DNA of 60,761 nt from Gammaproteobacteria bacterium (GCA_013696315.1 JACCYU010000092.1:1-60761), one strand, 5' to 3'. Shown: positions 2,942 through 21,510, numbered from the stretch's first letter. Numbers and translations: made by a program. Notes: generated by a model not told the origin, from the sequence alone.

Positions 2942-4162
2942 TCAAGCAGTTTTCGTTCCATCGATTACCGCAGATAGCCGTTGACGTAAAACCATAGCGC
3001 AGCCACCGCGATCGAAAGCGTTGTTATGGGAATTCCAATCTTCGCAATTCGCTGAAGCCCCGGGCACGCCATGCGCGGCGGCGCGTTCCACGACGATGAT
3101 ATTGGCGAGGCTGCCGGTCAGCAGCAGATTGCCGGAAAGCGTGGTAAACACGGCCAGCGCCGTCAGCACGTCCGCCGGGATGGTCTCCAGCGCCTGCAGG
3201 AGCATCACCACGACAGGTACGTTGCCTATCGTGTTGCTCGCTATCACGGAAAACGGGGTCAGCAGCGACAACCGGTAAGGCAGCAACTCATTAATCTTGC
3301 AGCCAGTCGATCAGGCCGGGTGCGGCCGGCAGGCTTGTGAACGCGGCCGTGACCGTGAACAGACTCGCGATCAGCGCTAGCAGCGACCAGTCCACCTGTC
3401 GCAGCAAAACCGGAGTCGTGATCCGGCGCCCCAGGATCAGAACCGCCGCGAGTTCACGCTGCCCGTCGAAAAACACCACCAGCAGAATCAGCGCTGCGGT
3501 GGCGAGAAAGCTCTTGGCGGTCAGCCAAGGATGAACCTCGACCGGCGGATCGGCGCTAGCCTGGCCGTTCGCCGCACGCAGCGATTGACGCCAAATGGTC
3601 GCGATTACCACGAAGACGATAAACAGCGCGGCGATGGCCGGCACGGCGGCGGTGAGAAAATAGTCGAAGAAACCGAGCCGGCCGATCTCGCCGATCAGAA
3701 TATTCTGCGGATTGCCGATCAGGCTGGCGGCCGAACCCGCGTTCGCGCTGCCCGCCAGCGCCAGCAGAAACGGCCGCGGGTCCAGCTCGCGCGCGTAACG
3801 CGACACACAGCAGCGGCGTAAAAGCGAACAGCACGATATCGTTAACCAGCACCACGGACAGCTTGCCACCGACCAGCACGACAGGACTGGCGTCAACACG
3901 ACTGAGCAACGCGCCTGTGAAATCAAAACAATGCGCGGCCGCGAAATGTCCGCCGAGAATCATCAGCGCGAACAGCAGCAGCAGGGTCGGCAGTTCCAGG
4001 GCGTGCGGTAACTGCGCGACGCCAAGCGCACCGCTCGCCAGCAACACGATCATGCCGGTCAATGCGAGCCCGGTACGGTCCACGGCCAGCCCGGGAATGC
4101 GCCCCGGCCATGCGCACGTACACCGCGATGAATACGCCTGTGATTAGCGCCGTATCGACCAC
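2942..4162 (-). pseudogene. ArsB/NhaD-superfamily anion permease, disrupted by three frame changes
   Basis: Four consecutive minus-strand ORF pieces (3923..4162, 3556..4083, 3291..3926, 2942..3286) read as one permease when joined: ...ALITGVFIAVYV / RIPGLAVDRTGLALTGMIVLLASGA...FTPLLCV / SRYARELDPRPFLLALAGSANAGSAASLIGNPQNILIGE... / KINELLPYRLSLLTPFSVIASNTIGNVPVVVML. Frame switches lie near 4100, 3805 and 3297. Confidence 0.7.
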
Positions 4163-4272
4163 ACCGCAGGGCCGCGTAAAGCGTCTCGCGTTTCTCCGGG
4201 CCGAACCGCGATTTCGAAGTTCTTGGAGTCAACTTTGTTATCGGGCCACATTACGCTGAACCATTTGCCCCA

Positions 4273-6324
4273 TCACTCAAGCAGCGCTTTCAATAGCGCG
4301 TCCGGCGTATCCGAGTAGAACGGGATGTTGACACGCGTTGCCATATCATCGGAAAGCTCAACAAGTTGCTTGCGAGCGGAGACTGGCATCAGAACCGTAG
4401 CCGCCCCCTTCTCTACGGCTACCTCGACGATGCCAACGGCATTCGCTAACGGCTCCACCGAGCCACCGAGGTTCAATGCGCCAACCACGATCAGGCCACC
4501 TTTCATGCTCTTTTCTAACAGCCCGCTGCAAAGAGCCATCAATGCCGGCAGACCAAGAGCAGTCCCGGTACGGTCGTTGTCTATCGCGCGCAGCTGTACG
4601 GAGAACTCATGCGAACGCGGATCCCTATCCCCAACCAGTTCCTTTGCCCGCGTGTACAGGTTCTGCTCGGCGTAACGCACGCTCTCGCGGAACGCCGGCG
4701 GGACCGGGGCGTTCAGTATCTTGACGCCGCTACCCCGGCCGACGGTGGCCTCAATGCGGTAGAGGCTGGCGCCCGTCTCCAGGCCGCCCGGACTGATGCC
4801 CCACACCTGCCCTGGCGGCAGTGGGTCGAGCTCAATGGCTTCGTCGCTGTGCAGCTCTGGGGTCGTAACGAACTTCTCGATGCCGTCTTCGCCCATTGCG
4901 TAACTGAAATGCGTGTTGCGGAACTCGCTCTTGAACACCCGCTTCTGTTGTTCCTTGACCCGGCGACGCATTTCGAGGGCAACCCGGACCATCGCCTCCA
5001 GTTCATCGTCCGGGATGACCATCTCCGGGTCTGGATAAAGCAATTTCAGTAGGCCGCTTACGGTCTTGTTGACCGCCGTGATGTCCCGTCCGCTAAGCGC
5101 CCCGCCATAGTTCACGCGGCCCTGTAGCGCGGGAGTCCGACTGCCCGTCCGCAGCCGACTCCAGCACTCGGACAGAAAGTCACTGACCAAACCGAAGTGG
5201 TCCGTGAAGTGCTCGTTCGGACTCAACTTCGGGAAGTCCCACCCCGGCACATAGGCATGAATGCGGTCCATGAAAGCCGTGTCGTCCCGCATCTCTGGGG
5301 GTAGCGGGCTTAGGAGGTGCCCAAACCGCTGCTGGTGCGAGACCTCCACATTGAGGTTGCCGACCATGACGATACCCTCGGCCCTGATGCTCTCCTTGCC
5401 ACGGGAGAACTCCCCGGATTCCATGTATCCCTTGAGGATGTTCACGCCATCTTTCTGATCAAATGACACGCCCGAGATTTCATCGAAGCAGACCACGTCG
5501 TACTGGCAAACCAAGCCGCGTTGTCCTGTTCCCATATGAACGAACATCTTGGCCACCGTCGCCTTGCCGCCCGAAATCAGATGGGCGTAGGGAGAAATCT
5601 GCTGGAACAGGTGACTCTTCCCCGTCCCGCGGGGACCCAGCTCGACCATGTTGTAGTTCCGTTCTACGAACGGCACCATCCGGACAAGCGCCACCAACTG
5701 CGCCCGCTCCGAGAGCGCAGCTGGCTCGAGCCCAACGCTGCGGAGCAGAACACTTTTCCATTCTTCGCTGGTGAAGTCGTGTCGTCCGCGTTTGAGCGTA
5801 TCCAGTACATCGGCCTTGGACAGCTGAATGGCTCGAAGGCTGTCGATTGCGAAAGGACGGCCCCCTTTCTCTTGTGCGATGGCAGCGTCGTAGCTCAGCG
5901 TGACTTCGGCATAAAAGCCATCAGTGAGCATGCGCTCATGCTGCTTGACCAGACTGTCGTCGATGCGAACGTCTTTGATTGCGAGACTGGGGAGTTCGGC
6001 GACGAACGAGTCCGTCTTGGCGTCAAGCTTCGCTCTGACAATATCGATGAGCTTGATCGAGCCCAGGTCGCGGGCTCTCGCCTTGAAGAGCTCCACTTCG
6101 CCCGTTCTCACTGTCCGGTCAGCCAGCTGACGTTCGACGATCGTCAGCCCTTCCTCGATCTCCTGCTCGTCCGTGCTCGCGCAGTACCGCCCGAGAAGAA
6201 ACTCGACCACATACGTCGGCACCGGATACTGGCGGCTGTACTTGCGCACCAGGTCCTTACGTACCAGGTAGCCTTCAAACGCCGTCGCCGCCAAGCGATC
6301 GAGTTGATCGAGTACCACTTTCAA
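4273..6324 (-). CDS. brxL: BREX system Lon-protease-like ATPase BrxL
   Basis: 683 aa. Features: N-terminus FEGYLVRKDLVRKYSRQYPVPTYVVEFLLGRY, Walker A GPRGTGKSH, and a C-terminal Lon-like domain. Last gene of the canonical BREX-1 order. TTG start overlaps the pglZ stop (TTGA). Confidence 0.9.
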   Translation of the reverse strand: MKVVLDQLDRLAATAFEGYLVRKDLVRKYSRQYPVPTYVVEFLLGRYCASTDEQEIEEGLTIVERQLADRTVRTGEVELFKARARDLGSIKLIDIVRAKLDAKTDSFVAELPSLAIKDVRIDDSLVKQHERMLTDGFYAEVTLSYDAAIAQEKGGRPFAIDSLRAIQLSKADVLDTLKRGRHDFTSEEWKSVLLRSVGLEPAALSERAQLVALVRMVPFVERNYNMVELGPRGTGKSHLFQQISPYAHLISGGKATVAKMFVHMGTGQRGLVCQYDVVCFDEISGVSFDQKDGVNILKGYMESGEFSRGKESIRAEGIVMVGNLNVEVSHQQRFGHLLSPLPPEMRDDTAFMDRIHAYVPGWDFPKLSPNEHFTDHFGLVSDFLSECWSRLRTGSRTPALQGRVNYGGALSGRDITAVNKTVSGLLKLLYPDPEMVIPDDELEAMVRVALEMRRRVKEQQKRVFKSEFRNTHFSYAMGEDGIEKFVTTPELHSDEAIELDPLPPGQVWGISPGGLETGASLYRIEATVGRGSGVKILNAPVPPAFRESVRYAEQNLYTRAKELVGDRDPRSHEFSVQLRAIDNDRTGTALGLPALMALCSGLLEKSMKGGLIVVGALNLGGSVEPLANAVGIVEVAVEKGAATVLMPVSARKQLVELSDDMATRVNIPFYSDTPDALLKALLE

Positions 6325-8702
6325 TCCTCACCCCCGATGATCGTGGGTTGTTTAGTAATCACGTGGCCGCTTGCATCGAGCACGACCACGACAGCCGGCG
6401 TACCTGCAAGCTCGTCATCAGCAACCAGAAGGCTTGCCGCACCTTTGGCATCCACTGGTCGCACGTTGCTGACGCTCGAGCCCGGGTCGTTGACCTTCGT
6501 TCGCAGATCGACGGACAGCCCAGGCTGAGCGGACTCAATCTGCACCCTGCAGCGCAGGCCGGCCCAGGAGACGCCAGCCACCTTCGCTGCCGTCTTGGGA
6601 GTACTCGCGCCAGCGGTGACCCGGATGACGGGCACGAGACTCTCCTGCAGACTCAAGCCCCCGTGGGTGTATTCGTTACCCGCACAGAAACACGCGATAC
6701 CGGGCGCAACGGCTACACGTTCGTGCGCATTCCAGTGCCACCGCACGGTCGGTACCCCGACTTTCGATCCGCCCTTGATCGCGGCGCAGCGCGCCCACCG
6801 GCTCGCCGTGAGATATTTCGGGAGATCGACCTTGGGCAGCCCACCTGGAAGCCACAGCCAGCCGTGGTCCGTCACCACGCGGATTTCACGCCACCCGGCA
6901 TCCAGAAGGGATTCGATGCGTTCGAGCAGTAAGTCAACCTGGTCTTCAATTCGACCGGCGAGTTTCCCTTGCAATGAGTGGCCCAGCTTGTCGAGTTCCT
7001 CGTTCTCGGTCCAACCTCGACCCGATGGGTCGCCCGTCTCATCCACCCCAACATACTGATAGCCCGCCGCAGACAGCAGCTTGCGGAACCGATCCGTGGT
7101 CAGCGGTTGTTCAGTGTCTGCCGTCGCGGGCAGAAAATCCTCGCCGAGGGATAATCCCTTGATGTCCTCTGCCACCGGAGACACTGCCGGTTTCGCAGTT
7201 GCCGTGACCGTCGGCAGGCCGGCCCAGCGGGTTGACATCATCACGGACCAGCCCTTCGCCCGCATGCGCTCCGCCAGGCCTTGCGAAACGTCTAAGCGGA
7301 GCCCATCCGCGAACTGGATCATCCCGCCGGATTCGACTTGTACATCCTCCATCCCCTGCCCATCGTAACCAGGAAGGGGTTCCTTTTCGGCCAACTCTTG
7401 CAGGTGCTCAGCCGCCGACTCCAGCCAGGGACGGTATATGGCGTTCAACGCCTTGCTTAGAGCCTGGGCGTCAGCGGACCATTTCACCGCGGCCATCGTG
7501 GAAAGCGCCGCAGCGTCCGCCTCCCATGCCGCATCGACATACAGCTTGGCCATATCGGCCGCTGTTGCACCGCCGAGTTTGCTCGACGTGCGCGCAGCGA
7601 GCACCGCCAAGTGCGCGAGGGCGTTCGCCAACGGCGCCTGATCGAGCCTCGCCCAGACCCAGCCACGTCTCAGACCGTGGGTCTTCTCCAGCGAAAGAAT
7701 CTGCGCGCGCGCGGCCGCTGGCGATTTTTTCTCGAGGTCAAGGAGAGCTTGTCGGAGACTCGCCTCCGCTTCCTCGTTGCGCTGCGGCCAAGGTGAAGGA
7801 TCGGAGAGTAGATCCGTCTGAAAGGGCATGGCCTTACGCAACAACTCCGGCACGCCCGGGTACAACGTCGGCGATTCGGCAAAACGCTCCCACACGCGCC
7901 CCCACGGGCCCGCCCTCTGTCCGAGCAGCTCAGCTGCTACCAGCTCGCCATCCTTGTCCGGATCAAACTTGAGGTCCGCCTTGCAACGCGACTTGAAAGC
8001 GCTCCAGCGTCCGCTGTTCCAACCGGACTTCACCGCGTCCGGGTCGCTCAGCCAGAGCAGCAAGTCTTTTGCGGGGTCATCGGAGAAGAGCTTATCGAAA
8101 TCCTCTGCTTCGAGATGCTTGCCTTTGAGCCTTTCCACCGACGTCGTCGCCAGCTCGGTAAGCGCGCCCACCATCGACCGACGGGTGGCTGCATCGCGCG
8201 CCACATCCAGACCAAGCCCGCCGTCTTCGGCGACCAGGAATGCCTCGACGCTCCAGTCCTTGCCGTTCTTCTGGGTCCAGCACACACCTCGGTATTGAAG
8301 CTCCACCAGCGGCTTGAGGCTATCCGGGCACTCCTGGACGGCCCTGAGTTCCTGCCGGCTGACCCCGGGCAGGTAGATAATCGGTATTGTTCCCTCTTGG
8401 ATCGCGACGTCTGGGAGCGCACGGTCGACCACGCTGCGTAACCAGATCGCCGGGCCGATGCGCTGCTCAGGCTGGTACTCCCCAAACGTCAGAAGCTGTG
8501 GCAGCAGCCGCCGAAGCTGGGGAACGACTGGCTGCCATTGAGCATCTTGATCCGTCCACAAGACGGCGTACGGATGCACAACATCGTTCGGGTTGTACCT
8601 CACTGCACCCTCCAGCGAGCGAACCAAAGACTCAACGACGGTAATACTCGAGTGGACTGCTTGGGTTCTCACCGTATCGCCTTCTTCACGATACACCTGC
8701 AA
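6321..8702 (-). CDS. pglZ: BREX-1 alkaline-phosphatase-superfamily protein PglZ
   Basis: 793 aa with N-terminal YAVLWTDQDAQW and the PglZ core IRVVTDHGWLWLPGG. Sits directly upstream of brxL. Start is uncertain: TTG 8702, GTG 8696 or a later GTG. Confidence 0.9.
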   Translation of the reverse strand: MQVYREEGDTVRTQAVHSSITVVESLVRSLEGAVRYNPNDVVHPYAVLWTDQDAQWQPVVPQLRRLLPQLLTFGEYQPEQRIGPAIWLRSVVDRALPDVAIQEGTIPIIYLPGVSRQELRAVQECPDSLKPLVELQYRGVCWTQKNGKDWSVEAFLVAEDGGLGLDVARDAATRRSMVGALTELATTSVERLKGKHLEAEDFDKLFSDDPAKDLLLWLSDPDAVKSGWNSGRWSAFKSRCKADLKFDPDKDGELVAAELLGQRAGPWGRVWERFAESPTLYPGVPELLRKAMPFQTDLLSDPSPWPQRNEEAEASLRQALLDLEKKSPAAARAQILSLEKTHGLRRGWVWARLDQAPLANALAHLAVLAARTSSKLGGATAADMAKLYVDAAWEADAAALSTMAAVKWSADAQALSKALNAIYRPWLESAAEHLQELAEKEPLPGYDGQGMEDVQVESGGMIQFADGLRLDVSQGLAERMRAKGWSVMMSTRWAGLPTVTATAKPAVSPVAEDIKGLSLGEDFLPATADTEQPLTTDRFRKLLSAAGYQYVGVDETGDPSGRGWTENEELDKLGHSLQGKLAGRIEDQVDLLLERIESLLDAGWREIRVVTDHGWLWLPGGLPKVDLPKYLTASRWARCAAIKGGSKVGVPTVRWHWNAHERVAVAPGIACFCAGNEYTHGGLSLQESLVPVIRVTAGASTPKTAAKVAGVSWAGLRCRVQIESAQPGLSVDLRTKVNDPGSSVSNVRPVDAKGAASLLVADDELAGTPAVVVVLDASGHVITKQPTIIGGED

Positions 8703-9948
8703 CGTAAATCGTCAGCATGAGTTCCGATTCGTCGACCAGACGGTATTCCGGGGCTTTTCCTGACAGTTGTTCGCTGCGAGACAAGATGATCGGCACACCT
8801 TCACCGCGTTTGTCCATGATGTGGGAGCGATGAGCTGCAAACTCGTCTCCCTCAACCGGACAGCGCGCGAGTAGACTAGTAATGGCTTCGTTACGGGCGG
8901 CTTGCCGATAAGGCAGGCTCTCAGGCGTCATGGTGTTGGCAAGTAGTCCCAGCGTGTACAGCTCCAGCCTGTCGTCGAACAACCGCAGGCGCACCTTGCT
9001 GCCCGCCATCGAATAGTCGCGATGCGCGACGGCGTTGGTCACCGCCTCGAAGACGGCGAGCATGTCGTACTGCGGCAAGTCCTCGCGCCCGCCCTCCGCG
9101 CGCTTTCGAGCCGCACTCTGCATATTCTTTCGCACGAAGTCGCAAGCATCGAAGATCTGGTGGTCCAGTGAACCTGTAATGTTTCGGGCATCGCGCTGAT
9201 AAGCCGACTCGATTTGCGGTGCAATCACTGACCCCCGGTAGGCCACGGCCTGAACGAAGGCGCCGGGCAGGAACCGCTCGGGTTCCCGGCAAGCCATGAG
9301 CACTCCGGCCACGGTGGGCCGCCACACGTCAGCATCATCTTGCGAAGCCATTGCCAACTTGGCGAGCAGCTGTTCGGGCGCGTCGGTCGAGCGCAGCGTG
9401 CCGAAGCGACGCCACAATGGCTCTTCGAGATCGGCAAGCGTCGCCCGCGGCACCGGCGTTTCATCAAAACGAATCAGACGGGCTTGGCTGCGCTGCTGGA
9501 AAAGTCGCGCCAGTTGATCGGGTGGTATAGGTCGCTTCGATGATCCAACCCGATGACAATATCCCGCCGGACTTTGGTGCACGAACAGACTGGGCGGCAC
9601 TTCGATGCGTATTACAGGCTGCTCCGTCCCTCCGCTGTCTGGCAGCGTAAGCCGCTCGATCACCGGTGCCGCAGGCGGCTTGATCGAGTCCTCGCACGCC
9701 TGGCGCACCATCGTTTCCACGGCATCAAGCCGATCGACGGGAATGCCCAGTACCTCGCGCGTTTTGTCATGCACCCCCAATACCAACACGCCGCCGCGGC
9801 TGTTGGCGAAGGCAGCCAGCCGATCGGCAAGGTCGTTCTGTCCAGGGCCACGAATCTTACCGCTGGCAAAACGCACCTCCTTCAGTTCCAGGAAACTGTC
9901 TTCGCCCAGTCGAATCTTTTCGAGCAGTTCGCTGCGTGTCGCGAACAT
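8686..9948 (-). CDS. AlbA_2 (Schlafen-like, 'divergent AAA_4') + HATPase_c_4 domain protein, BREX-embedded
   Basis: 420 aa. The N-terminus ESxFLELKEV...LADRLAAFANSRGGVLVLGV is typical of the AlbA_2/Schlafen-type DNA/RNA-binding domain. The C-terminal EAVTNAVAHRDY motif is typical of HATPase_c_4. The ATG lies 1 nt after the upstream stop, with a GGGAGG SD inside the upstream gene. Confidence 0.75.
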   Translation of the reverse strand: MFATRSELLEKIRLGEDSFLELKEVRFASGKIRGPGQNDLADRLAAFANSRGGVLVLGVHDKTREVLGIPVDRLDAVETMVRQACEDSIKPPAAPVIERLTLPDSGGTEQPVIRIEVPPSLFVHQSPAGYCHRVGSSKRPIPPDQLARLFQQRSQARLIRFDETPVPRATLADLEEPLWRRFGTLRSTDAPEQLLAKLAMASQDDADVWRPTVAGVLMACREPERFLPGAFVQAVAYRGSVIAPQIESAYQRDARNITGSLDHQIFDACDFVRKNMQSAARKRAEGGREDLPQYDMLAVFEAVTNAVAHRDYSMAGSKVRLRLFDDRLELYTLGLLANTMTPESLPYRQAARNEAITSLLARCPVEGDEFAAHRSHIMDKRGEGVPIILSRSEQLSGKAPEYRLVDESELMLTIYVAGVS

Positions 9949-9949
9949 G

Positions 9950-12747
9950 TCAGACCTCCCGCCCCAATCGTGCCCAGCGGCGGGAGAACGCCTCGCGACC
10001 GCCTTCCATTACCCGACAGACTTCCTCTCGGACCGTCTTCTCTTGCAATGCACCGCGCTCGACGACTCGGCACTGGCCGCCTCGGAAATCGAAGGCATGC
10101 ACCATCTCCGGATCCCCGTTGACCACCACGTTAGGGTTATGCGTCACGATGATCAGTTGCCGGCGCTGCTTGTTCTCGCGGATCTGGCGTACAATCAGCT
10201 GATAAATCAAATGGTTGTCCAGATCGTCCTCGGGCTGGTCGAGGATCAGCGGCTCATCGCCGAACGCAAGCAGAAACGCCAGCAGGGCTGCCGAACGCTG
10301 GCCTTGCGAGCCCTGGGTAATGGCCGACCAGTCACGCCCGTCTCCCCCGCGACTGTATTCGATGCGAAGGTCGCCCTCTGGGAACCAGCAGCGGGCGTGA
10401 TCGGTAAACTCGGGTTTTTCAGCTTACGCTGGAGGTAATTCTGGAAATGCCCGCCGAAGTCAGTATCAAGCTCAATCATCCGCTGCTTGATGCTTTGCAA
10501 TACGACCTCCCGATCTGGGGCGTCCGCTAACTCGAACGCCAACCCGCCCGCAGGCTCGCCGTCATCGAACCGCAAGATGTCGTTTTCGAAGCGGTCGTCC
10601 TGCGCATCAAGCAGATCGCGCAAACTGCGCTCGATGCTGCGCGCATCGAAGCCAAATCCAACCACCTTCATACGCACGAAGTTATTGGTCTCCAACGTGG
10701 CCACTACAAATTGGGCACGCGCCTGCGTCGTGTCCCTGCGCGTGTCAAACACGCGTTGCCACTGGGCCTCGCTTTCAGCTTCCAGGCGTTCCCGATCCTG
10801 GCGTAGCTGATCGAGCTGTTTCAGTTGTGCTTCAAGATGTTGACGCTCCTGTACCAATCGCCCGAAGGCTTGCGGATCGGCGACGCCTTGTGCTGCGAGT
10901 GCGGCTTGAAGCGCCTCATAGTCGGTCTGCGCCTTGTCAGCGCGCTGGCGCCACTCTGCAAGCCGGCCGTCAGTGGCAAGCACCCGGACCTTCGCGGCGA
11001 GCGTGTCTGCGGCTCGTCCGAGCGCCTCGCGGGCCTCGCCCAATGTCCGCTCTGCCTCGACCCGCCACGCGAGGGCCTCGCGATCCCGCGTGGCATCGAA
11101 GGTGCCATCCGGCCAGTCGTCGAGCAGTAGATCTTGCGCCAAAGCCTCGATGCCCCCGGGTGTCGTTTGCAGTTGCTCAAGAGTTGTATCGATCTCCCGG
11201 CGCTGTCGAAGAGCTTGCTGGTGGGCCTTCAGCACCTCGGCGTGATGGGACTGTGCCAAGGCTTCGAGCTTGCGATTCAGGTCCGCGAGCTTGCGTTCCA
11301 GCTCCGGCCGTCCGGCTAATCTCCCGTCCAGTTCGCGCAACCTTGCTCGCTGTGAAAAAAAGGCGTTCTTCGCCTCTCTAAAGGCTCGATGCAGTTCTCC
11401 TATGTTGGCCGCTTCGTCAATCACGTCGAGCAACGCCTGCCGGCTGTCTCCAGCCATAGCCGCGATCTGCTTCTGTGAACATAACCGGATCGGGAAGCGC
11501 TCCGCATGCACCGCTTGGCTGGACGATGTTCGCCACTCGCCATCGTCGTCTTGTTCCTCGACGACCGCCCCTGGGGGGTCCCGGCGCCAGCGCAGTCGGT
11601 GCGTAAATCCCTCGCGCATCAGCGCCACGCGGATTTCAGTGTTTTCTCGCAGCGCGCCATCCCCGTCGCGCCCCTTAACTGGTTGAGAAAAACTCTTGAA
11701 CTCGCGGGAGGGCTCTGTCTCGTCTCCGAGGCGACGCAACTCATCATCTCGCTGGTACGCTAGGCGCAGAGCATGCACAATGGTCGACTTGCCCGTACCG
11801 CGTCCTCCGATCAACGCATTGTAGTAAGGCGTGAAGGCAAGCCGCTCCTGGGTGCCGTTACCCATAAAGCGTGCAGACTCGATCTCGATGCCGGTGATGA
11901 AGTGTGCCGGCGTCTGGAACCGGTCGAACTCCCCTTCGTCACTCCGCCGGATCGAGATCCCGTTGCCATCCAGAAGCGCGAGGCGCTGCCCTTCCAACGT
12001 GGGGCTCGCCATCTTGACCCAGGTATAGCCTGAGCCGGGAACGCCGTTACCCTGGAAGCTGTGACAGTCGCTACCCAACACCCGCGCCCACTTGCCACGG
12101 CATTCGTCGAATACCGTAGGGGTGAGTGAACGCAAATCACACCACTCCATCGCCAATACGTCCTTGACTTCAAACACCTGTCGAATGGTGTTGGCGTCGA
12201 GATGCGGTTGCCTGCCATTCGCAACCCGTAACAATCCCTTTTCCTTGTCGGCGTGCGCGGGTATGGCAACCCCGCCTGCGTCGAGTACTGCTTGCACCAC
12301 CTCGGCCGGACCCAAGCGGGTAACACCGTCGCTGTCGCCCTCGGTTCCTTGGTACCTGACGGTCGCCAGTAGGTCCGTGATAGTGCGGGTCGTTAATTCT
12401 GGATCAAAGATCGCGAGCAAATGGAAACCGCTGGAAACAGAAAGCTCGACGCCTGGGAATAGCGTCAACTCCCGAAATCCCTCAGGCGGCGACCCGGCAT
12501 CGTCTTGCCCCTTCATCTGGTCGTAGGCCGCCTTGAGGCCATCGACCCACGCGCCGCTGTTGTGGTCGGTGATCGCTACGCAATCGACCTCGGCGGCCAT
12601 GTAGCGCAACAACCAGTCTTCAGGTGCGACAGCACCACCGTTCTTCGCCCAGTAAGTATCGGTGGAGGCCGGTGTATGCGTATGAAAGTCGAACTTCCAC
12701 CAGCGCGATCCCGGGTAGGGCCAATCTTTTTGTGTGTGATCAGTCAT
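9950..12747 (-). pseudogene. PHP-phosphoesterase / SMC-like ABC ATPase fusion (Ppl / TrlF-like), one frameshift
   Basis: Track ORFs 10246..12747 and 9950..10210, plus my translation of the gap.
- PHP motifs: FDFHTHTPAS, ITDHN.
- Walker A: GGRGTGKST.
- Coiled coil of ~350 aa.
- After a frame change at the T5 run 10415..10419: KPEFTDHARCWFPEGDLRIEYSRGGDGRDWSAITQGSQGQRSAALLAFLLAFGDEPLILDQPEDDLDNHLIYQLI...LIIVTHNPN, giving the ABC signature, Walker B and H-loop.
- Length 2798 nt; adding 1 nt gives 933 codons. Confidence 0.75.
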
Positions 12748-15700
12748 GGCTGTTTATCCTCCGCCCGTTCGCGGGCCGCGCGTTTCTCGGCAACAGTGAG
12801 ATGCACGTCGTTGACACGCTCGCCGGTGAATTTGCCGTTGTTCCAGAACCACGCGAACTGCGCCTGGTCGCGTATAGGTTCTTTGCCGCGGTCCTTGTTC
12901 CGGTGGATGTTCGGCTTAGCGCGCAGGATGCCGGCGCCTCTCTTGGCGCCCGGAATGTCCTTGGCCATGAAGGGACGAATGTTCAACCGCACGCCGTCGT
13001 TGATGTCCGGCGCCCAGCCGATGGCTTGTTCCTCAATGGGCTTCCAGCGCACGAAAATGTCGAAAGGCGGTTCGCCCTCTATTATGGCGATGAGGCGTTT
13101 CTGCAATTCCAGCGCCGCGGCCAGGCGATCCTCCGCGCCACCTTCACCGCGCTTCACACCATCCTGCTGGCGCGCGATCCAGTCGCCGAGATAGCTGTAG
13201 GTGAGGGACTCCAGAAGGCGCCGGCCCTTGCCGTTGCCCTCGGCCAGCTTATGGTAGTTGACCAGGGCGTGGAAGCCATCGCGCTTGCGGCCATCCCAGA
13301 TGTGCCATATGAAGGGGCGGTGATGGAACAGCTTGCAGTGCTGTTCGAAGAACCGGTTGCGTAGCCAATCGTCGAGACTGTTACTGCCGGCCTCCGCAAG
13401 CAATTTCGAGAGCGTGTCGTTGCCCCATTCGTCGCCCCAGGCGGCTACCAGTAGATGCAACAAGCGCTCGTGCGCAGGTCGTTCACCACGCGCGGACGGC
13501 AGGCAGACAATACCGTCTGCATCCCCCTGATGGATCAAATCATCCGGGGCGAGCGCCGGGCAATCGGGAAAACTTGAACCGGTCTGGCGCGGCCACTGGT
13601 AGCCGAGCAACCGGGCCACGACCACCTGCAACGGCTGGCCTGAACCTTTGGGCTGCCGTTGAACAACCACTGCGTCGGGTCGCTCGAAAACGGCTTGGGC
13701 AACCCGTGCGGATACTTCTCCGCCGCCACCTTCTGCCAGTAAGCCAGGTCGAAGGGAACTTTTACGAGCGATGAATTTGTAACTTTGAGTGCTTGATCGA
13801 CACTACGCACATTCAGAGAAAACTGCGGTGATGAGCAGTAACACCAAATCGCAGCAAGGTCCGATTCCTCATTTGGGCATATCGCGCCGACATTGTCATC
13901 AAAGCGATCTCCGAGATAAAGTGTGGAGGCTAGCCCGGACATGCGGCTAACAATGATTCCTTTCTTTCCCCACACCTCTTGCCCAGTTCGCCATCGTTGA
14001 ATGGCCGTGTTAAGGTGCCTAACGCTCTGGGCGGCGGCATAAAGTTCGCCGGTGCCTTGTTGCCAAAAGACGACTTGGGATCGACCGCCATAATATTCCG
14101 ATAGACCCACGGTGCTTTGCAGATACTCCCAGTCAGGTTTGATGCTCGTGGGCTCCCAAAAAATTGGAAAAAGCGATTTCCATCTCCGGTCAACATTCCT
14201 GAAGCGAACGATGCGACTTTGTTCAGGAATGCCGAACGTATTTGGGTATCAATCACGATTCGAGCGTCGGGATTCAACAACTGATCTGCTTGCCGGGCGA
14301 TCACCGGAGGACATAAATTTTGGTCGCTAAGTCTTAATGATTTTTCGACCGGCGTCGTTGCTTCCGTCACGTCAAGCCCTGCCATCGTTGCTCCGTCGCG
14401 AGGCCGTGCAGCTGATATGACGCCCAGTTGTATATTGAAATCCCACATTGGCGTCTGAAAGCCCTTTGGCCCAAGCCGAGCGATGATATTCCACGTTTGA
14501 TACTTCAACAGAGATTTTCGAAGCGTCGAATAGATACCAAGAAACAACCAATTCTGCGGCGTGACCAATGCGGTCGTGCCGGAGTCTGGACAGAAGGTAA
14601 GGCAACGCTCCACGAAAGCTGTGGCTAAGTCGGCTTTGCTAGCGGGAAAATATTGCTCCAAGTGGTTCCTGAGGATGTCGTCCTGCTTTCGGCTACCGAG
14701 GTAAGGCACGTTGGTGGCGACGAGCGTGAACTGGCCGGCGAGAATTTCCGCCGCCTTGGCCAGGCCGCGCGCGGTCACGGCCATTTCGTGCGCGGTGTCG
14801 TCCCTGACTTCCTGCGCCAGCGCCTTTTCCAGCAGCGGCTGGAGTTCATGGAACGCGGCCACCAGCAGGTCGCCCTCGCCGGCGCGCGGGTTGATGAGGC
14901 TGCCCAGCACCGCCGCCTTGGTGAACAGCCGGTAAAGCCGCTCCATGCCGCGCTGGAGCTTCTGGTTGTCGCCGGCAATCGCGAGCCATTCGGCTTCGCG
15001 CGTGTTCGGCGCGAGACCGGAGCAGGCCAGGTTCAGCCGGCAGCGCGCAGTGGCCCACGCGCCGCCACGCGGCCAGCGCCAGGTTGAACGCGCCGATCTG
15101 CGTGCAGCGCGGGTCAAGCTCTAGCCCGAACAGGTTGTCGCGGATGACCGCCGCCACCGCTGCCTTCTCGTCCAGCTGTTCCTCCGCCATGCGCAGCGCG
15201 ACGAGCCGCTCAAACATCGCCACCACGAAATGTCCGCTGCCCATACATGGGTCGAGGCACTTGAGTTCCTTCGCCGTCTTCGGCCAGCCGTCAAACGTGC
15301 CGGCGGCGGGAGTCCACTTGCCGCCCTCACCTTGGATGAAGCGGAGATATTTCCATGGCCAGCACGGCAGCGACACGGCCTGGCGGAGTTCGTCCTCGCT
15401 CTGCGCCTTTTCGGCCAGATTGGGATTGGCGGCGAAAACCTTGCCCGCGTGCCACGCGCCGAGCGTGTTATCGAGCAAAAAGTCCACCATGTAATCCTCC
15501 GTGAACAGTTGCGTGACCGCCGGCAGTTCATCCGCGCCGATCTTGTTGCCGGCGGCGTTCACCTCATCCTTCTTCCTGGTCTGCCAGAACTGGTAAACCC
15601 AGCCGAGCGAGTCCGTCGCAGTAAAGACATCGGTCGGCAGGCCTTCAACCAGCGTTTCCAGTTTCAATCGATGCTCCCGCGCGAGCTGGACTTTGAACAC

Positions 15701-16147
15701 CGGATGGTCGGGGCGGAACACCTGCGGCAGCATCCGATTGGCAAAGCGCGCAGCCAGCGCCCATTGGTCGACGCCCTCTTTCTTCGCCAGCTCTTCACAT
15801 TCAGCCAGGGTGATGGCGACCCCCATGTCCGGTTCGATGAGCAAATCGCTCTCGGCGAGAAAGCGGGCAAAGAGCATTCCGTGCCAGTGCTCGTAGGCGC
15901 ACTCGTGCACCTGGTGATCGATGCCCTGGCTTCCCGAACGCGCATCGAGCCGGTCACCGAGCTGGCGCGCGTGGGCGCGCAACCGCCGGCGCAGGGTGCG
16001 CTGCTCCGAGCTCATATGCCCGTACGGCTCGTGGTGGTGCACGGCGAGCGCCTCCAACGCTACACGGGCGCCCGCTTCAGCCACGTCGCGCGCTTGGACA
16101 ACAGTGCGTTCGAGTTGCCTGCGAAGGTGTGGCGAGAGCGTTTCCAC
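12744..16147 (-). pseudogene. pglX: BREX-1 N6-adenine DNA methyltransferase PglX, three frameshifts
   Basis: Four overlapping pieces: 14846..16147, 13930..15117, 13535..14110 and 12744..13670.
- Motif I LDPCMGSGHF, motif IV ATNVPYLG, C-terminal LQVVVARLLGYQWP.
- Joined reading: ...FNLALAAW..ALP|LNLACSGL..., ...GNRFFQFF|WEPTSIKPDWEYLQSTVGLSEYYGG..., ...DPTQWLFNGSPK|GSGQPLQVVVARLL...
- Length 3404 nt. Removing one inserted base and restoring two deleted ones gives 3405 nt, a multiple of 3. Confidence 0.85.
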
Positions 16148-16156
16148 GATTCTGGG

Positions 16157-16445
16157 TCACTCGAATTCGGCACGCGGCAGGCCGGCCCAAGGGGTGATCG
16201 ACATCATTCGGCAAAACGCCCCCGCATTATTTTCAGGCGAATGAACTTCTGTAGGGTGGATTAAGGCGCGTAGCGCCGAATTCACAGCGGTTGGTGGATA
16301 CGCCCGCAAAACCGGCGGGCTTTATCCACCCTACATGGCTACATTGCTGGATGACCTTACCATCGTGCAGAGGCATTTTCGGGAAAACCGCGAGCCGCCA
16401 GAATTTGGCGGACATCCTGCCGGAAAGGACCCGCAACTTACGCAA
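16157..16445 (-). pseudogene. hicA: hicA (YcfA/HicA-family toxin) remnant: frame-disrupted and split by a REP-like element
   Basis: The reading begins LRKLRVLSG. The HicA-like stretch DVRQILAARGF is only seen after a 1-nt frame switch, then ...GKVIQQCSH ends exactly at the REP element. The 30 codons after the element end ...SITPWAGLPRAEFE*, resembling the AGLxxxEF HicA C-terminus. The start overlaps the hicB stop. The reconstruction is tentative. Confidence 0.4.
16250..16335. repeat. 86-bp REP/MITE-like nested palindromic element
   Basis: Terminal inverted repeats: tgtagggtggat (16250..16261) and atccaccctaca (16324..16335). Internal hairpins: ggcgc-gta-gcgcc (16265..16277), and ggtggata/gcccgc...gcgggc/tatccacc (16293..16330). 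The architecture resembles enterobacterial-type REP units. Confidence 0.6.
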
Positions 16446-16659
16446 CGGCCACCTCGACGTGGGTCACATAGACTTCGCTGTGCAGCCGCTGCTGAATCTC
16501 GGTGGCGGAAGCGGTCTCGAAAAACAGTTCCAGAGCCGCCTTGAGATTATTGCGCGCCTCGTCCACCGTCGCGCCCTCGCTGGCGACATCCACGTCCGGA
16601 CACAAGGCGACGTAGCCGTCGCCCTCCCGTTCAATGATTGCCGTTAGCTGTCTGTTCAT
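16438..16659 (-). CDS. hicB: HicB-family antitoxin (UPF0150 fold, no DNA-binding extension)
   Basis: 73 aa: LTAIIEREGDGYVALCPDVDVASEGATVDEARNNLKAALELFFE matches the HicB N-terminal domain pattern (YxAxIExExDGYVAxCPExDxASQGxTxEEAxxNLKEALELY). Confidence 0.8.
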   Translation of the reverse strand: MNRQLTAIIEREGDGYVALCPDVDVASEGATVDEARNNLKAALELFFETASATEIQQRLHSEVYVTHVEVAVA

Positions 16660-16687
16660 GGCTGTACTCCTCTGTCGTTCGATCTCA

Positions 16688-19600
16688 TCAATTGACGAAC
16701 ACAGGCCCGTGCCTGATCTGTTCGAGCAACTCCTGCTCGGTCTTCACGATCCACGCGTTGACCTCATCGGGCGTGCGGAGCGTGGCGCTGCCGAGCTTGA
16801 CGTGGTGTGTTTTGGGCTCGACGAGCTTGTCGGCCTGGATGCGCGCGTCTGCGAAGAGCTGTGGGAGTGCCGCCGTGCGCGTCCTCCATGCAGCTAGGGA
16901 AATACGCTCTAGGGATTCGAGCACTTCCTGCTCGGTGCCCGTCACGCCCTTGGTGATCTTGACGATGTGCAACTGGCCAAGGATCCGATCCCCTTCCTCT
17001 TGCCCGATCTTGTGCCAGCTCTCGGCACTTGCAAGGCGCTGCCATTCCGCCTCAAAAATTTCGGCGTAGCGCTTCTCCGCTTGCGCAAGGGCCATCCGGA
17101 GCGCATCCGCCAGCGCCTTGGTGAGGTCGGGCACTCGATCCGTCGCGTCGAGCAGGCCGCGGTTCGCCGCGATGGCCTCGATCTGTGGCTTCGCCTCCTT
17201 CGCGGCATCCAGGCTATCGACATGACGGGCCAATGACAGCAAGCGCTCGTAAGCCGGCTGGCGCTTGTCTGCCATGTCGCGAGCCTTACTCCACTCTTCG
17301 ATGTTCTTGATGAGTTCATCGTGACGGTTGAGGATGCCGAGCAGTTGCTCATTACCGGCACGCGACTGCAGATCCAATAGGTGGCTGGTATCCGGGCGTT
17401 CGGGCAGCGGGGCTTCGCCCCCGGCACGGTTAGCCAACTCGGCGAGCTTTGCGAGGAACTGGCCGGCAGCCGCCGCCTCGTCGTTCGGCTTGCAGGCAAT
17501 CCCAGCCGTCTGAAACAATTTGCGCACCTTGAGGCGCTCGCGGGTGTCGATGGTCGCGCTCTCGACGCGGAAGTCGGTACTCGACACCTTCGCCTGATCC
17601 AGCTGCCCCGGCTTCAGCGGCGTTCCGTTTGCGGTCGCGCGCAGATGCCCGGTACCAAACAGGCTGATGAGCGCTGCGTCGACCGCATCTCGCGACCACC
17701 CATAGGGCGGGCCCGAGAAATGAGAGCGCACATCCTTACCCTTTTTCCCGGATCCGACGAACGACAGCACGGCCGAGCAGACCGGATGATCTTCGGTCTT
17801 GCCGCTGTAGTCCAGCGCCTCCAGGGGATGCTCGGCGCCCTTGCGGGCCCGCTCGATGACTTTCGGCCAACGGTGGTCGTCGGCGTCCTTGAACTCATAG
17901 AAGAGCCGATCCAGAGATGCGTCGGCGGCTTCCCTCACCTTATCCAGCAGCGTTGATTCCAATCGCTCGGTACCGCCACCCTGGAACACCTTCGCCCCAT
18001 CGACGACTTCGGCCACGAGTGTCCGCAGGCTGTTGGCTGCCTCGGTTAGCCGAGTCTCCATGCCCTGACGGGCCTCGATACCTTCGGGGGTCGAGGGGAC
18101 TCCCTTGTATTCTAAAGTATCCTTCGCCGCGCTCTGGGCGGCGATGACGCGGGCCAGCGCGTCGGCGCGAGATTTGGGCACAAACACGTGGATGATGGGA
18201 CTGTCGGCCCCCGCCGCACGTGCATCGGCGACCACGCTCTTCTCGTCGGCGCCCCAGCCATCGCGTATCCAGACCGGAACCTCGTGGCCGGTTTCCTGCG
18301 GAGGTTCGGTGCCGAAGTGCAACGCGAGCTTCCTGGGCTCCTTGCACTTGCCATGCAGGAGCTTCACGGACCCCACCGCATCCTGTACCGCGGAGCCAAG
18401 GAGCTGAGCGCGTTTGCTGCTCATGCGAGTGGGATCATTGACGAGCTTGGTTTGCCGGTTGCGGAACTCGGCTTCCCATTCGCTGCTTTCCCGCGTCTGA
18501 AGACTGTACTCATCGTCCAGCTTGATCAGCGTGCCAGCGGCCACCAGCTCGTCCAGCAGCTTCGGTACCTGACCGCGCAGCGTGGCGCCGTCCTTCGCCA
18601 GATCCTTCACCAGCAGATCCGCCAATGCATCGGCGGTGGCGCGAACCCCGATGTCGGCACCCGCTTCCCGCGGGAGCTTGCGGATAAGGAACACCAGTGC
18701 GCACAGCCGCGACTTGAGGCGGCCGTCGGGAGTGCCGTCGTCCTGCGCGATGATGGTCTCGTTGACCTCGCGGAGCAGAACACCGGACTGAAGCAGGTTG
18801 GCGGAGATCTCCTCGAATAGAAAATCCGCTGGCACCACCGTACCGACTGGCTCCTCGGCGGTGCGCCGTATGGCGTCGTAGACGATACAAAGCTGCGTGC
18901 GGAGCTGTCCGGCAGTGCCCGCGCGGTCAACCGCGCGCAGAGTATGCTCCCAGAAGCGCCGGCGGACGGGCAGCAACGGATAGTCCTCGACCAGGATCGA
19001 CTTATCCTCGCCGCGGGGTCCGATCTTGGTGCTCACCAAGTGACGGTCGAGTTCCCCTGAGTTGGCTTCCAGAGTCGATCTGACGTCGTTCACTCGGTCC
19101 GGGCGCTTCGCCAGGACAACCCGCCGGGTGACCGTTTCAACATCGTTGTCGGAGAGTTCCACATTGACCGTGAACGGCCCTGGAGACGTTGAAGCGCCGG
19201 CGTGCCCGAAAGGGCGGTTTGTCCAGTACCCAGGAAGAGCAGGCGATCGCCGAACCGTTTGCTGCAGGCTTCAACCACCTCCTGAACGACGTAGGATCGG
19301 CTGGAGTCGTCTCCGATGTACTGCTGCACCTCATCGAGGATGATGACGGCGCCAGGCATCTCGCCGTTGGACGACAGCGTGTCCTGTAGCGCGTTGACGA
19401 ACTCGTCGGTGGTGATGTCCTTCGGCTTCGGGAACTGAGCACGCAATGCAGCCCTGGCGTCCTTCTCGTTGGCTGCGAAGTTCGAGTCCGCAACGAACAA
19501 GGCTTTCGTGATCAAGGGGCTGACATACAGATCATTCAGCTCACGGCGGAACTCGCGCCCTTCCGCCTCGACCGCCGCGCGCACCTGATCGTAAATATCA

Positions 19601-20130
19601 TTCTTCTTCAGCCAGAGGGAGAAGCGCGCCTGGGGGAAACTCTCGGGGAGTTCCGCGGACTTGAACACAATCCCGAGAAGCGCGAGCCGAACGCTGTCAC
19701 CGGCGCCGGCGCCGAGGGTTCCGGCCGCCGCATGCAACCCGTGGCCTCGCTTGCCCAGTGTCGAGATTTCCTTCAGCAGATCCTCGACGTCATTCGGAAG
19801 CCGAGCCAAACCGCTGGCACTGGCGCCATCTTCGGGGAAGGTGTAGTCCGTCCACAGGAAGCGCAGCATTTTGGCCAGGTGAGATTTGCCGCTGCCGAAG
19901 AATCCGCTGATCCACGCTGCCGGTTGCTCGGGGTGGCCCTGATTGCTGACGTACGAATCGAGAATGCGAACCAGGCCGCGTTGATACTCACCTTCACAGA
20001 CGAAGTACTCGAGTTCGAAGCGCAGCGTGCGGCGCTCGTCATCGCTCAGGGCGTCGGTCATGGCCGCGACGCCATTGTTGAGCAAAGTGATCTTGCTGGG
20101 ATCCCGCTGGTAGATATCCCGGTTTTTCAT
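16688..20130 (-). pseudogene. brxC: BREX-1 P-loop ATPase BrxC/PglY, one frameshift
   Basis: Pieces 19090..20187 and 16688..19162, with Walker A SGFFGSGKSH.
- ATG 20130 (MKNRDIYQRDP) overlaps the brxB stop as ATGA.
- The joined reading ...GTPALQRLQGR|FTVNVELSDNDVETVTRRVVLAKRP needs one extra T in cgttcacgg (plus strand aa 19173..19174).
- Length 3443 nt; adding 1 nt gives 1148 codons. Confidence 0.85.
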
Positions 20131-20696
20131 ACCTCGTACACGCCTCGATCTTCTTGCACCGTAATCGGGACTGCCAGGTAGTTCCATCCATCCCGCGCGT
20201 CCAGCAAACGATAGTTGCTGTTCTCGTACTCACCAGGGAAGAACACAACCACACGACCTCTGATATCCCGCTCGATCTCCTTCATTAACTCCGATACGCG
20301 GACGAACCCGAACAGAGAAGCGATACCATAGACCCCCACAACCGAGTTATCGTCAATGCCGGACGCCGTGAGTGCGGCACGCATCTGCCCGGCGACGTAT
20401 TCAAGAAAGGCATCGTCGAGCTTTAACTCAAGATCTTCCGGGCACTCGAAGTAACTGTCTCGGTACTCCGTATTGGCCATCCACTCCGCAAATGCCCGAG
20501 TCAGATCACACTCGCTCCAACCATGCCCTGCCTCCGCGGTCGCCAGCGCGAACAGATCTTTCCGCGCCCGCAGCCGCCGCTCGTCGGCTTTGTCGTAAAC
20601 GATGAAAATGGCACGCTGCGCGCCCGCCAGGTCCTTTTGCCACGGAAGCGCAATGTAGCTCTTGTAGCGGTCAGCCAACCTGTCGATGCGCCCCAT
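20127..20696 (-). CDS. brxB: BREX protein BrxB (DUF1788)
   Basis: 189 aa: RIDRLADRYKSYIALPWQKDLAGAQRAIFIVYDKADERRLRARKDLF is typical of BrxB. Positioned between brxA and brxC. Confidence 0.85.
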   Translation of the reverse strand: MGRIDRLADRYKSYIALPWQKDLAGAQRAIFIVYDKADERRLRARKDLFALATAEAGHGWSECDLTRAFAEWMANTEYRDSYFECPEDLELKLDDAFLEYVAGQMRAALTASGIDDNSVVGVYGIASLFGFVRVSELMKEIERDIRGRVVVFFPGEYENSNYRLLDARDGWNYLAVPITVQEDRGVYEV

Positions 20697-21510
20697 GGAT
20701 CAACTCCCGCTCCTTCTCGGTGAACATGGTCGGAAACGACACGTCAATGACCGAGCCAGATTGCTTGAAATGGAGCAGTCCAAGCCGCCTGGCATCAACC
20801 GCAACATCAATGAGCTCTTCGGGGCTGGCATCCAACATGGCAGCCCAGGGCGTCTCGAATAGCGAGCGCCCACGCCGCCCCATGGCAAAACCCAGCAACA
20901 ACGCATACGCACTTGCCGCGGGCGTTGCCTCGACGCGCTGTCTGGTCTTACGCCCGCGTCCAAGCAGATGCCCGGACTGGGTCCAAGACGACGAGGCATT
21001 GCGCACTACTTTATCCAGCGTCGCATCGTTGAGGCGATCGCCAATAGCATCGGAAAGCGCATCCTTCATCGATTGCCGTGCGAACTCGTGCCCAAACGGA
21101 GTGCCGATTATGGCCCTTGTGGTTGCTCTTAGCAGCGGGTCGCGCGCGAGAGCGAGCAGGAGCGCAAGGAGTGGGCGACTGGTTTCGTGCCTGCCCCAGA
21201 GGTCCCTCAGAACGCGGAAAAGCATGATCCGAGCATCAAGCCCATAGAGCTCAGTCAGCCTTTGGAGGGAGAGCTTGCGGGTTGCCGCTGTCCTCTTGCC
21301 CAGACAATTGTCCTCCACAACCGCATGCGCGTAGTCTTCACGGGAGGCTTCGCCGGGAGCCGCTTCCAGCAGACGCGACAGCTCGTCAAGCATGATCGTC
21401 CGACTGGTGTGAGTGCCGCGGCCACCAGAACGGAATCCCCAAAGCAAGGCGCGGTTCGGCGGGAGACCGGCTATCCCGGTTTCGAAATTCGGATCGTATA
21501 TTGCGCCCAC
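20671..21510 (-). CDS. brxA: BREX protein BrxA (DUF1819)
   Basis: 279-aa ORF, first gene of the operon, overlapping the brxB start. Helical and Leu/Ala/Arg-rich, consistent with DUF1819. The start codon is uncertain because the ORF is longer than the ~200 aa I recall as typical. Confidence 0.75.
   Translation of the reverse strand: MGAIYDPNFETGIAGLPPNRALLWGFRSGGRGTHTSRTIMLDELSRLLEAAPGEASREDYAHAVVEDNCLGKRTAATRKLSLQRLTELYGLDARIMLFRVLRDLWGRHETSRPLLALLLALARDPLLRATTRAIIGTPFGHEFARQSMKDALSDAIGDRLNDATLDKVVRNASSSWTQSGHLLGRGRKTRQRVEATPAASAYALLLGFAMGRRGRSLFETPWAAMLDASPEELIDVAVDARRLGLLHFKQSGSVIDVSFPTMFTEKERELIHGAHRQVG

Follow-up and report, generated by a model that had tools for sequence, protein, structure and literature searches.

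A TrlF/TrlG gene pair nested between pglX and pglZ of a BREX type 1 operon and its recurrence in methylation-based defence operons

Two coupled genes, open reading frames (ORF) A and B, lay between pglX and pglZ of a bacteriophage exclusion (BREX) type 1 operon on the minus strand (~4.3 to 21.5 kb) of the window, a 60,761-bp contig of an NCBI metagenome-assembled genome (MAG) labelled Gammaproteobacteria bacterium. The pair was a BREX-embedded form of the Ppl/TrlF family together with a bacterial Schlafen, already named as the temperature restriction locus (TRL), and it was a member of a widespread two-gene module that is mobile both vertically and horizontally. By analogy with characterised systems, the pair may be read as a largely self-contained second-line or abortive-infection module carried in methylation-based defence operons, and we give this reading as a whole a probability of roughly 0.55. 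The two genes, and an intact relative in a cultured bacterium, were as follows:

9950 to 12747, minus strand: ORF A, TrlF-family, 932 amino acids (aa) once repaired, by NCBIfam NF045780 and PADLOC Ppl
8686 to 9948, minus strand: ORF B, TrlG-like, 420 aa, by Pfam SLFN_AlbA_2 and HATPase_c_4
ATZE01000001.1, region 196179 to 217441: trlF-trlG of Sedimenticola selenatireducens, intact pair

The module was embedded translationally in the pglX-pglZ slot. An initial annotation of this DNA, made from the sequence, had described a tightly coupled two-gene module nested in BREX, and all of its structural claims held. The pglX stop TGA (12746-12744) shared an ATGA at 12744-12747 with the ATG of ORF A (12747-12745), as had been claimed. 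The ORF A stop TGA (9952-9950) was followed after 1 nt by the ORF B ATG (9948), with the Shine-Dalgarno sequence GGGAGG also seen where claimed, 6 nt 5' of that ATG. The ORF B stop (8688-8686) overlapped the earliest possible pglZ starts (TTG 8702 and GTG 8696), with the following GTG 13 nt downstream; the stop claimed to overlap the pglZ start region lay inside the pglZ start, or at most 13 nt from it.

Repaired ORF A matched TrlF_fam_ATP (NCBIfam NF045780) over profile positions 2-944 of 944 with 602.9 bits (cut-off 350), and the PADLOC Ppl model with E = 4.6e-124. It was homologous over its full length to Ppl_antiphage (NCBIfam NF042955; 493.2 bits), and missed the equivalog cut-off of 1000. 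The initial annotation had correctly named both Ppl and the NCBI TrlF family for a PHP-plus-ATPase protein. Profile matches assign ORF A to the TrlF family, as a relative of Ppl and not as a Ppl equivalog. Ppl is a validated single-gene anti-phage system (Gao et al., 2020) with a phage counter-gene; like ORF A it combines PHP and ATPase, and it differs in that the window has a coupled Schlafen-GHKL gene downstream. That TrlF proteins lacking TrlG are true Ppl was not supported, as none of the 10 TrlF tested, with or without TrlG, reached the 1000-bit cut-off. The TrlF family comprised 1,021 clusters at 50% identity (E ≤ 1e-30).

Pfam detected only the ATP-binding cassette (ABC) parts of ORF A (AAA_21, SMC_N and AAA_23). 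The initial annotation had proposed AAA_23 and SMC_N as profile checks, and both matched; the Pfam PHP model, proposed likewise, gave no match to ORF A. With that model silent, the PHP assignment followed from the NCBIfam CehA/McbA domain (E = 2.9e-8), from PHP-type metal-binding residues (D20, H22, (H24), D61, H62, E101, H109, H165, D229, H231) present in ORF A that were invariant or nearly so across 28 diverse members, and from a Foldseek match of the N-terminal domain of the Sedimenticola TrlF model to the PHP domain of RNase AM (E = 6.7e-6). The AlphaFold2 (AF2) model of this orthologue, 74% identical to ORF A, had a mean confidence (pLDDT) of 83, and its remainder matched MukB/JetC/Smc/Rad50 heads (E = 1e-11 to 1e-7). 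Walker A, Q-loop, signature, Walker B and H-loop motifs (GGRGTGKS, SQKQ, SQGQR, DQPEDD and THN) were present in ORF A and invariant in the family, and a coiled coil of ~250 aa split the ABC ATPase head (helices 427-687 in the model). TrlF accordingly joins a PHP phosphoesterase to an ABC ATPase of the SMC/Rad50-like kind, which carries a long coiled coil; the architecture originally described, with every motif quoted for it, was borne out.

ORF B matched both Pfam models that had been named for it, SLFN_AlbA_2 (E = 5.5e-15) and HATPase_c_4 (E = 8.6e-15). Its predicted catalytic residues were E16, E21, K23 and D61, and it had a GHKL N-box (E301..N305..H309RDY) and a C-terminal helix-turn-helix-like region. 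The catalytic residues and the N-box were invariant in 59-60 of 60 TrlG partners. Aligned with HMMER to the catalytic lobe of rat SLFN13 (5YD0), the N-terminus covered the E-x4-E-x-K and GGxxxxGVxD motifs (lgEdsflElKe with fsEsasiEfKq; GGvlvlGvhD with GGyllfGvdD). The AF2 model of ORF B (pLDDT 76.5) matched the uncharacterised 3LMM over its full length (E = 8e-17); in Foldseek its middle matched histidine-kinase CA domains and its N-terminus the nuclease domains of SLFN5/11/13/14 and SAMD9 (E ~1e-3), and the helix-turn-helix-like C-terminus was visible in the model. NCBIfam returned no match to ORF B, PADLOC called no system and matched it only to the Schlafen-like/PNTD parts of pAgo/Aga fusion proteins, and Pfam found no Toprim domain. 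By sequence and model, TrlG combines a Schlafen-type nuclease domain, its E-x4-E-x-K...D site intact, with an ATP-binding domain of GHKL type, and ends in a helix-turn-helix-like region. Because TrlG carries a complete Schlafen active site, its predicted substrate is RNA, probably tRNA.

Bacterial Schlafens (pSlfn) cleave tRNA and abort infection, and Slfn-HisKinase is their commonest architecture (34% plus 19%; Perez Taboada et al., 2026). ORF B had this architecture, with the helix-turn-helix in addition, and the Ex4(E/D)xK motif. Slfn-HisKinase constructs, alone, were not among the protective ones; protection came from two pSlfns with different fusion domains (Perez Taboada et al., 2026). 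Tight linkage of Schlafen-HisK-wHTH genes with BREX or BREX-related loci has been reported for at least 1017 taxa, and auxiliary and backup effectors have been proposed for BREX (Rakesh and Krishnan, 2026). A PHP/ABC partner of Schlafen was absent from both papers, with zero occurrences of PHP in the two texts; two "php" matches in the supplements of Rakesh and Krishnan (2026) were chance letters in alignments.

The pair had been named before. The trlR-trlF-trlG operon, from which the TrlF family takes its name, is the TRL of Photorhabdus laumondii (Hapeshi et al., 2020, bioRxiv 10.1101/2020.06.02.129163; PMC7554251), with a PHP-annotated TrlF followed by an AlbA_2 plus HATPase_c_4 gene, in the same order as in the window. 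The initial statement that no described system was known to pair a PHP-ATPase with an AlbA_2 partner was therefore incorrect, this operon having been described in 2020. The proposal of a candidate undescribed defence pair stood insofar as defence catalogues did not list the pair (PADLOC v2 has single-gene Ppl alone), but not insofar as trlF-trlG already had a name. The match to a named two-gene system was partial, in that the description of TRL concerned growth and temperature and never defence. Literature searches joining Schlafen with PHP, SMC/ABC and phage returned nothing, and the TRL paper was the sole one with AlbA_2 plus HATPase_c_4.

TRL differed from the window in standing alone, headed by trlR (~79 aa), whereas the window pair was nested in BREX. 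Translations in three frames of the DNA upstream of brxA, inspected by eye and not by profile search, showed no small helix-turn-helix-like ORF resembling trlR. ORF B was only ~27-29% identical, over at least 85% of its length, to G proteins of IncC and Pseudomonas plasmids, taxa which the TRL paper lists as having TrlG homologues; Photorhabdus TrlG appears to belong to this IncC/P. syringae-type clade. RefSeq routinely annotated a trlF-trlG-type pair on IncC and Pseudomonas plasmids, and on a Yersinia plasmid the TRL operon lies beside fragments of a Type I restriction-modification (R-M) system (PMC7554251).

To survey the association of the two families, a diverse alignment of TrlF proteins was searched against a single genome from each species; this gave at least 573 relatives, of which the best 80 loci were kept (31-69% identity, many phyla). 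Of these loci, 77 reached far enough downstream to be evaluated, and in 61 of them (79%) a TrlG-like ORF followed TrlF directly and on the same strand. The TrlF-TrlG gap was -17 to +7 nt in 59/59 pairs (over-called starts trimmed), and pairwise identities of F and G were correlated (r = 0.83). In the opposite direction, TrlF was upstream of only 19-21 of 72 evaluable TrlG-like genes in a metagenome scan (~29%). Co-occurrence, which had been proposed as a check, was strong from the side of TrlF and weaker from that of TrlG, and the idea that TrlG always needs TrlF was rejected. Two loci carried tandem FG-FG duplicates (L027, 5779-13949; L047, 4753-15856), the duplicated unit being FG. One TrlG-like gene, 72% identical to ORF B (L091, 2246-5421), had a 600-aa DUF2326 protein upstream instead of TrlF, with a gap of 113 nt; this protein may be an alternative TrlG partner.

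A scan of viral contigs found only ~6 full-length TrlF relatives, which indicates that TrlF is not mainly phage-borne. A TrlG relative was present on 43 plasmids of PLSDB, 30 of these conjugative. On the chromosome of E. coli ACN002 (L089, 304367-307120) a TrlF-family gene lacking TrlG stood alone beside prophage tail genes and pinE, and a gene of this type occurred in 17 of 5,426 complete E. coli genomes.

The arrangement of the window recurred. Cultured S. selenatireducens carried brxB-brxC-pglX-TrlF-TrlG-pglZ-brxL intact, and full or partial BREX-nested pairs were found in L023, L024, L034, L046, L047, L050, L055 and L080 of the genome sample and in L157 of the metagenome scan; L036 was a ninth genome BREX locus, with a degenerate layout. 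BREX-nested pairs occupied at least 4 separated places in a neighbour-joining TrlF tree (no support values), interleaved with other contexts. Those other contexts comprised the BREX-related DUF1156 methyltransferase-TrlF-TrlG-DUF499 operon, seen among others in Methylococcus capsulatus and Acidithiobacillus, a Type I R-M system of IncC plasmids (hsdR-TrlF-TrlG-hsdS-AAA-hsdM, beside a Tn7-like tnsD), Type III R-M in L061 (mod-TrlF-TrlG-res), and plasmids of B. thailandensis and P. savastanoi on which the pair stood alone. Three sets of junctions were measured, and in these the pair and its host genes overlapped by 3-4 nt save for one 9-nt gap. Upstream neighbours of TrlF on the same strand were mostly R-M components. 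That a methyltransferase gene always precedes the pair was rejected, as hsdR or hsdS preceded it in some Type I loci.

Clinical IncC NDM plasmids were among the carriers; in L088 (E. coli IncC plasmid pNDM102337, 134295-145342) the order was HTH-hsdR-TrlF-TrlG-hsdS-AAA-hsdM beside tnsD. An extra TrlG-like gene lay between brxC and pglX in L050 (4100-5350), besides the FG pair between pglX and pglZ. The TrlFG-hosting operon of M. capsulatus (L003/L004) had a MazE/MazF pair between its helicase and DUF1156 methyltransferase (3543-4206), and a TIR-domain gene after DUF499.

According to Went et al. (2024), the pglX-pglZ gap carries genes in ~7,000 of ~9,000 BREX loci, including PARIS and BrxU, and ~5,000 of them have no known system there; Ppl is absent from their list of known occupants. 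The premise of the initial annotation that pglX is directly followed by pglZ was consequently right for the textbook layout and wrong for most loci. Its view of the placement inside BREX as undescribed agreed with the lack of Ppl in that list, but embedded genes in this gap are familiar, and a 2026 report had placed Schlafen-HisK genes near BREX. The searchable literature gave no account of recurrent nesting inside operons of four classes of methylation-based systems.

Close fusion with the host operon could instead mean that the pair is an integral accessory of BREX or another host system with no autonomous activity, an extra nuclease or effector arm that the methyltransferase complex would bring to unmodified DNA. 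The stop/start overlaps with pglX and pglZ fit this, as do the placement of the pair, which in BREX, DUF1156/DUF499 and Type III operons comes immediately behind the methyltransferase gene, and the auxiliary and backup effectors proposed by Rakesh and Krishnan. The explanation is nevertheless improbable: in Photorhabdus the pair stood alone, as it did on the plasmids of B. thailandensis and P. savastanoi, its four hosts are mechanistically different and some have their own nuclease, and in some loci its neighbour was hsdR or hsdS and not a methyltransferase.

Either gene also occupied the same slots without the other. TrlG was found without TrlF as pglX-G-pglZ in L103 and L136 and as mod-G-res in L142-144 (metagenome loci), and TrlF of a clade without TrlG as AIPR-mod-F-res in L063, hsdS-F-hsdM in L070 and res-F-sbcD-sbcC in L073. 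Because each gene occurs alone, the main and still serious rival is that two independent single-gene systems, a Ppl-like TrlF and a Schlafen-HisK, were stacked in one slot and co-inherited by adjacency. Besides the solitary genes between pglX and pglZ or mod and res and the F-alone arrangements mod-F-res and hsdS-F-hsdM, this would account for the single-gene nature of Ppl, for the clades of TrlF lacking TrlG (the 17 E. coli genomes included) and for the ~70% of TrlG-like genes lacking TrlF. It sits poorly with the presence of G beside 79% of F genes in fixed order and translational coupling, with FG as the unit duplicated in tandem, with the lack of protection by Slfn-HisKinase genes alone, and with the difference in Photorhabdus between a trlG point mutant and deletion of the whole operon, from which the authors infer interplay among the trl genes (PMC7554251). 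We regard stacking as possible, if on the unlikely side.

Under the reading of the pair as a second-line or abortive-infection module, the favoured division of labour, by analogy with AriA/AriB or LmuB/LmuA, is that TrlF would be the sensor or restrainer and TrlG the toxic effector. Photorhabdus genetics, the predicted folds and the Schlafen active site all point this way. Mutations in trlG permit growth of Photorhabdus at 36 C (Hapeshi et al., 2020; PMC7554251), and 32 heat-tolerant isolates carried trlG lesions, with none reported in trlF, the larger target (PMC7554251). These lesions suggest that TrlG is the growth-arresting component; TrlF would not be an obligatory activator of the arrest, since otherwise loss of function in the larger trlF should dominate among the suppressors. 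A link to defence is suggested by homology to Ppl, by tRNA cleavage and abortive infection by pSlfn, and by the presence of PARIS in the same pglX-pglZ slot.

In Salmonella BREX, that slot is occupied by PARIS, formed by the ABC ATPase AriA and the tRNA-cleaving Toprim nuclease AriB. The window resembled it as a two-gene ABC ATPase plus nuclease, with an effector that is here also predicted to be a tRNA-type RNase; the PADLOC AriA model matched ORF A weakly and partially (E = 1.5e-14). The two differ in that AriA is an OLD-family protein and AriB a Toprim, while here the ATPase is SMC/Rad50-like with coiled coil and PHP and the effector Schlafen plus GHKL. In Lamassu (LmuB with LmuA) and SbcCD/Mre11-Rad50, as in the pair, a nuclease works with an SMC/Rad50-like ATPase that has a coiled coil (PADLOC LmuB against ORF A, E = 1.7e-10); these systems differ in that here PHP and not an Mre11-type nuclease is on the ATPase chain, there is no LmuC-like third gene, and the second protein is an RNase-type Schlafen. 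In SbcCD, Lamassu and Wadjet, ATPases of this SMC/Rad50 type recognise either the ends of DNA or its topology.

As the mechanism is proposed, the module would ride in operons of methylation-based defences and be expressed with the host system as a backup layer. TrlF would dimerise through its ATPase heads and coiled coil, as do Rad50, LmuB and AriA, and might, by analogy, sense foreign DNA or its ends, or else a disturbance of the host methyltransferase complex; its PHP site could process nucleic acid. TrlG, once licensed, would cleave tRNA or other RNA and arrest growth, and the growth stop of Photorhabdus at 36 C, relieved by trlG mutation, would be autoimmunity of the module. A stricter version, in which TrlF and TrlG guard methylation-based immunity in the manner of PARIS or Lamassu, with TrlF monitoring the host complex or escaping phage DNA and phage anti-restriction factors causing the release of TrlG, which would cleave tRNA and abort the infection, is rather unlikely.

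The TRL paper frames the locus otherwise, and following it the pair would have no defence role and would instead regulate growth or temperature response, TrlG binding DNA as a transcription factor and TrlF acting as an enzyme of DNA-repair-like kind. The sole phenotype on record is temperature restriction with altered virulence, phage never being mentioned (PMC7554251), many family members are annotated as transcriptional regulators, and the C-terminus of the ORF B model was helix-turn-helix-like. Neighbourhoods were, however, overwhelmingly of R-M, BREX and mobile elements, the Schlafen catalytic residues were strictly conserved, both proteins were homologous to defence proteins (Ppl and bacterial Schlafens), and the distribution was patchy and horizontally transferred in appearance. 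Absence of a defence role is very improbable.

Several points weigh against the pair as a self-contained second-line defence module. The association is asymmetric (~29% from the side of TrlG), the correlation of F and G identities may reflect nothing beyond linkage, and the filling of the same slots by either gene alone implies that each can work without the other. The sensing step proposed for TrlF is an analogy. The Photorhabdus-type TrlG clade, represented by IncC and P. syringae-type members, is only ~27-29% identical to ORF B. The trlF copy of the window was frameshifted.

TrlF/TrlG is a recurrent pglX-pglZ occupant missed by current defence catalogues, for a slot that holds uncharacterised genes in ~5,000 BREX loci, and one cassette nested repeatedly in four kinds of methylation-based systems would bear on how layered immunity is assembled. 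An SMC-like partner conserved upstream would offer a concrete reason why Slfn-HisKinase alone did not protect, and the largest class of bacterial Schlafens would, if the guard version is true, gain its first partner-dependent mechanism. Most of the wider Ppl family would turn out to be two-gene, Ppl itself having no known mechanism. The link to TRL would recast the temperature phenotype that limits the host range of Photorhabdus as autoimmunity of a defence system; under the guard version this limit on growth at mammalian body temperature would be autoimmunity triggered by heat.

The host operon had the BREX-1 gene set brxA-brxB-brxC-pglX-pglZ-brxL, with BrxB, BrxC, PglX, PglZ type B and BrxL identified by profile and brxA by position. 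Its features other than the pair were as follows:

4273 to 6324, minus strand: brxL (Lon-like protease), by Pfam BrxL_N and BrxL_ATPase and TIGR02653 (632.6 bits), intact
6321 to 8702, minus strand: pglZ (BREX-1 phosphatase, type B), by NCBIfam NF033450 (914 bits, cut-off 400), intact
12744 to 16147, minus strand: pglX (BREX-1 adenine methyltransferase), by NCBIfam BREX_1_MTaseX on the three fragments scanned, split over four ORFs
16148 to 16687, minus strand: insertion of 540 nt in the brxC-pglX interval, by sequence and translation
16688 to 20187, minus strand: brxC (BREX P-loop protein), by NCBIfam BREX_BrxC, positions 1-320 and 325-1172 on two ORFs
20127 to 20696, minus strand: brxB, by Pfam BrxB (E = 5.2e-8)
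20671 to 21510, minus strand: ORF at the brxA position, 279 aa, by position alone

The three pglX fragments scanned with NCBIfam were those other than 13535-14110; by tblastn, pglX was colinear with Sedimenticola PglX across four frames. The ORF at 20671-21510 had no Pfam or NCBIfam match and is either a divergent BrxA or some other protein; a promoter-like site lay upstream of it (21546-21519). A search of the window for island boundaries found no tRNA, no convincing flanking direct repeats and no striking break in GC or skew.

The trlF frame was broken by a 1-nt deletion near 10420 (window CTGAAAAACCC, relatives CTGGAAAAACC) into ORFs 10246-12747 and 9950-10210. Relatives of ORF A were ~930-940 aa and unbroken in all 120 among the matches listed. 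Repair of the one missing base gave the 932-aa protein of the initial annotation; repair by an added C (KLKNPEF) was probably wrong, and a restored G gave KLEKPEF, the family consensus. Frameshifts in brxC (a 1-nt deletion near 19177) and in pglX (at least 3, at ~15035, at ~13655 and one or more within the target-recognition region, which is divergent) had not been described in the initial annotation. The CitMHS-type permease adjoining brxL was split between profile positions 113 and 114, with ORFs 3556-4083 and 3291-3926 in different frames.

Considered independently of the rivals above, these frameshifts could be real and the BREX/TrlFG island a decaying pseudogene cluster, or they could be errors of the MAG consensus. 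Decay would explain their confinement to 2942-20187, with at least 6 in brxC, pglX and trlF and at least 1 in the permease, and with none in glgA nor among the large ORFs examined in 20.2-60.7 kb; the genes tested outside 2.9-20.2 kb were full length. NCBI, too, calls a truncated 833-aa protein at trlF. On the other hand, the cleanly mapped indels were only 1-2-nt deletions, two of them inside G runs, and no in-frame stops or large deletions were seen. The fragments kept 70-92% identity to Sedimenticola proteins, except for the divergent target-recognition region of pglX (45-55%), and the frameshift zone reached a gene unrelated to defence, as would be expected of a metagenome assembly stretch with low coverage or strain variation. 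Real decay is favoured somewhat less than even odds would have it; the clustering fits either such an assembly stretch or recent decay of the island. Given the frameshift in trlF and the frameshift-rich operon around it, the TrlFG copy may be inactive or mis-assembled. It is a poor experimental substrate, intact copies being available in cultured strains.

The brxC-pglX insertion (16148-16687) was a second occupied slot of the same BREX operon, the two genes being 540 nt apart here and 8 nt apart in the Sedimenticola orthologue. It contained a 73-aa HicB-like ORF (16438-16659) with weak Pfam matches to UPF0150/HicB_lk (E ~0.01, below cut-off), and what looks like a degenerate HicA-like remnant, a candidate with zero Pfam match. 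It also contained an inverted repeat with 16-nt arms (16250-16265 and 16320-16335) that looks REP-like.

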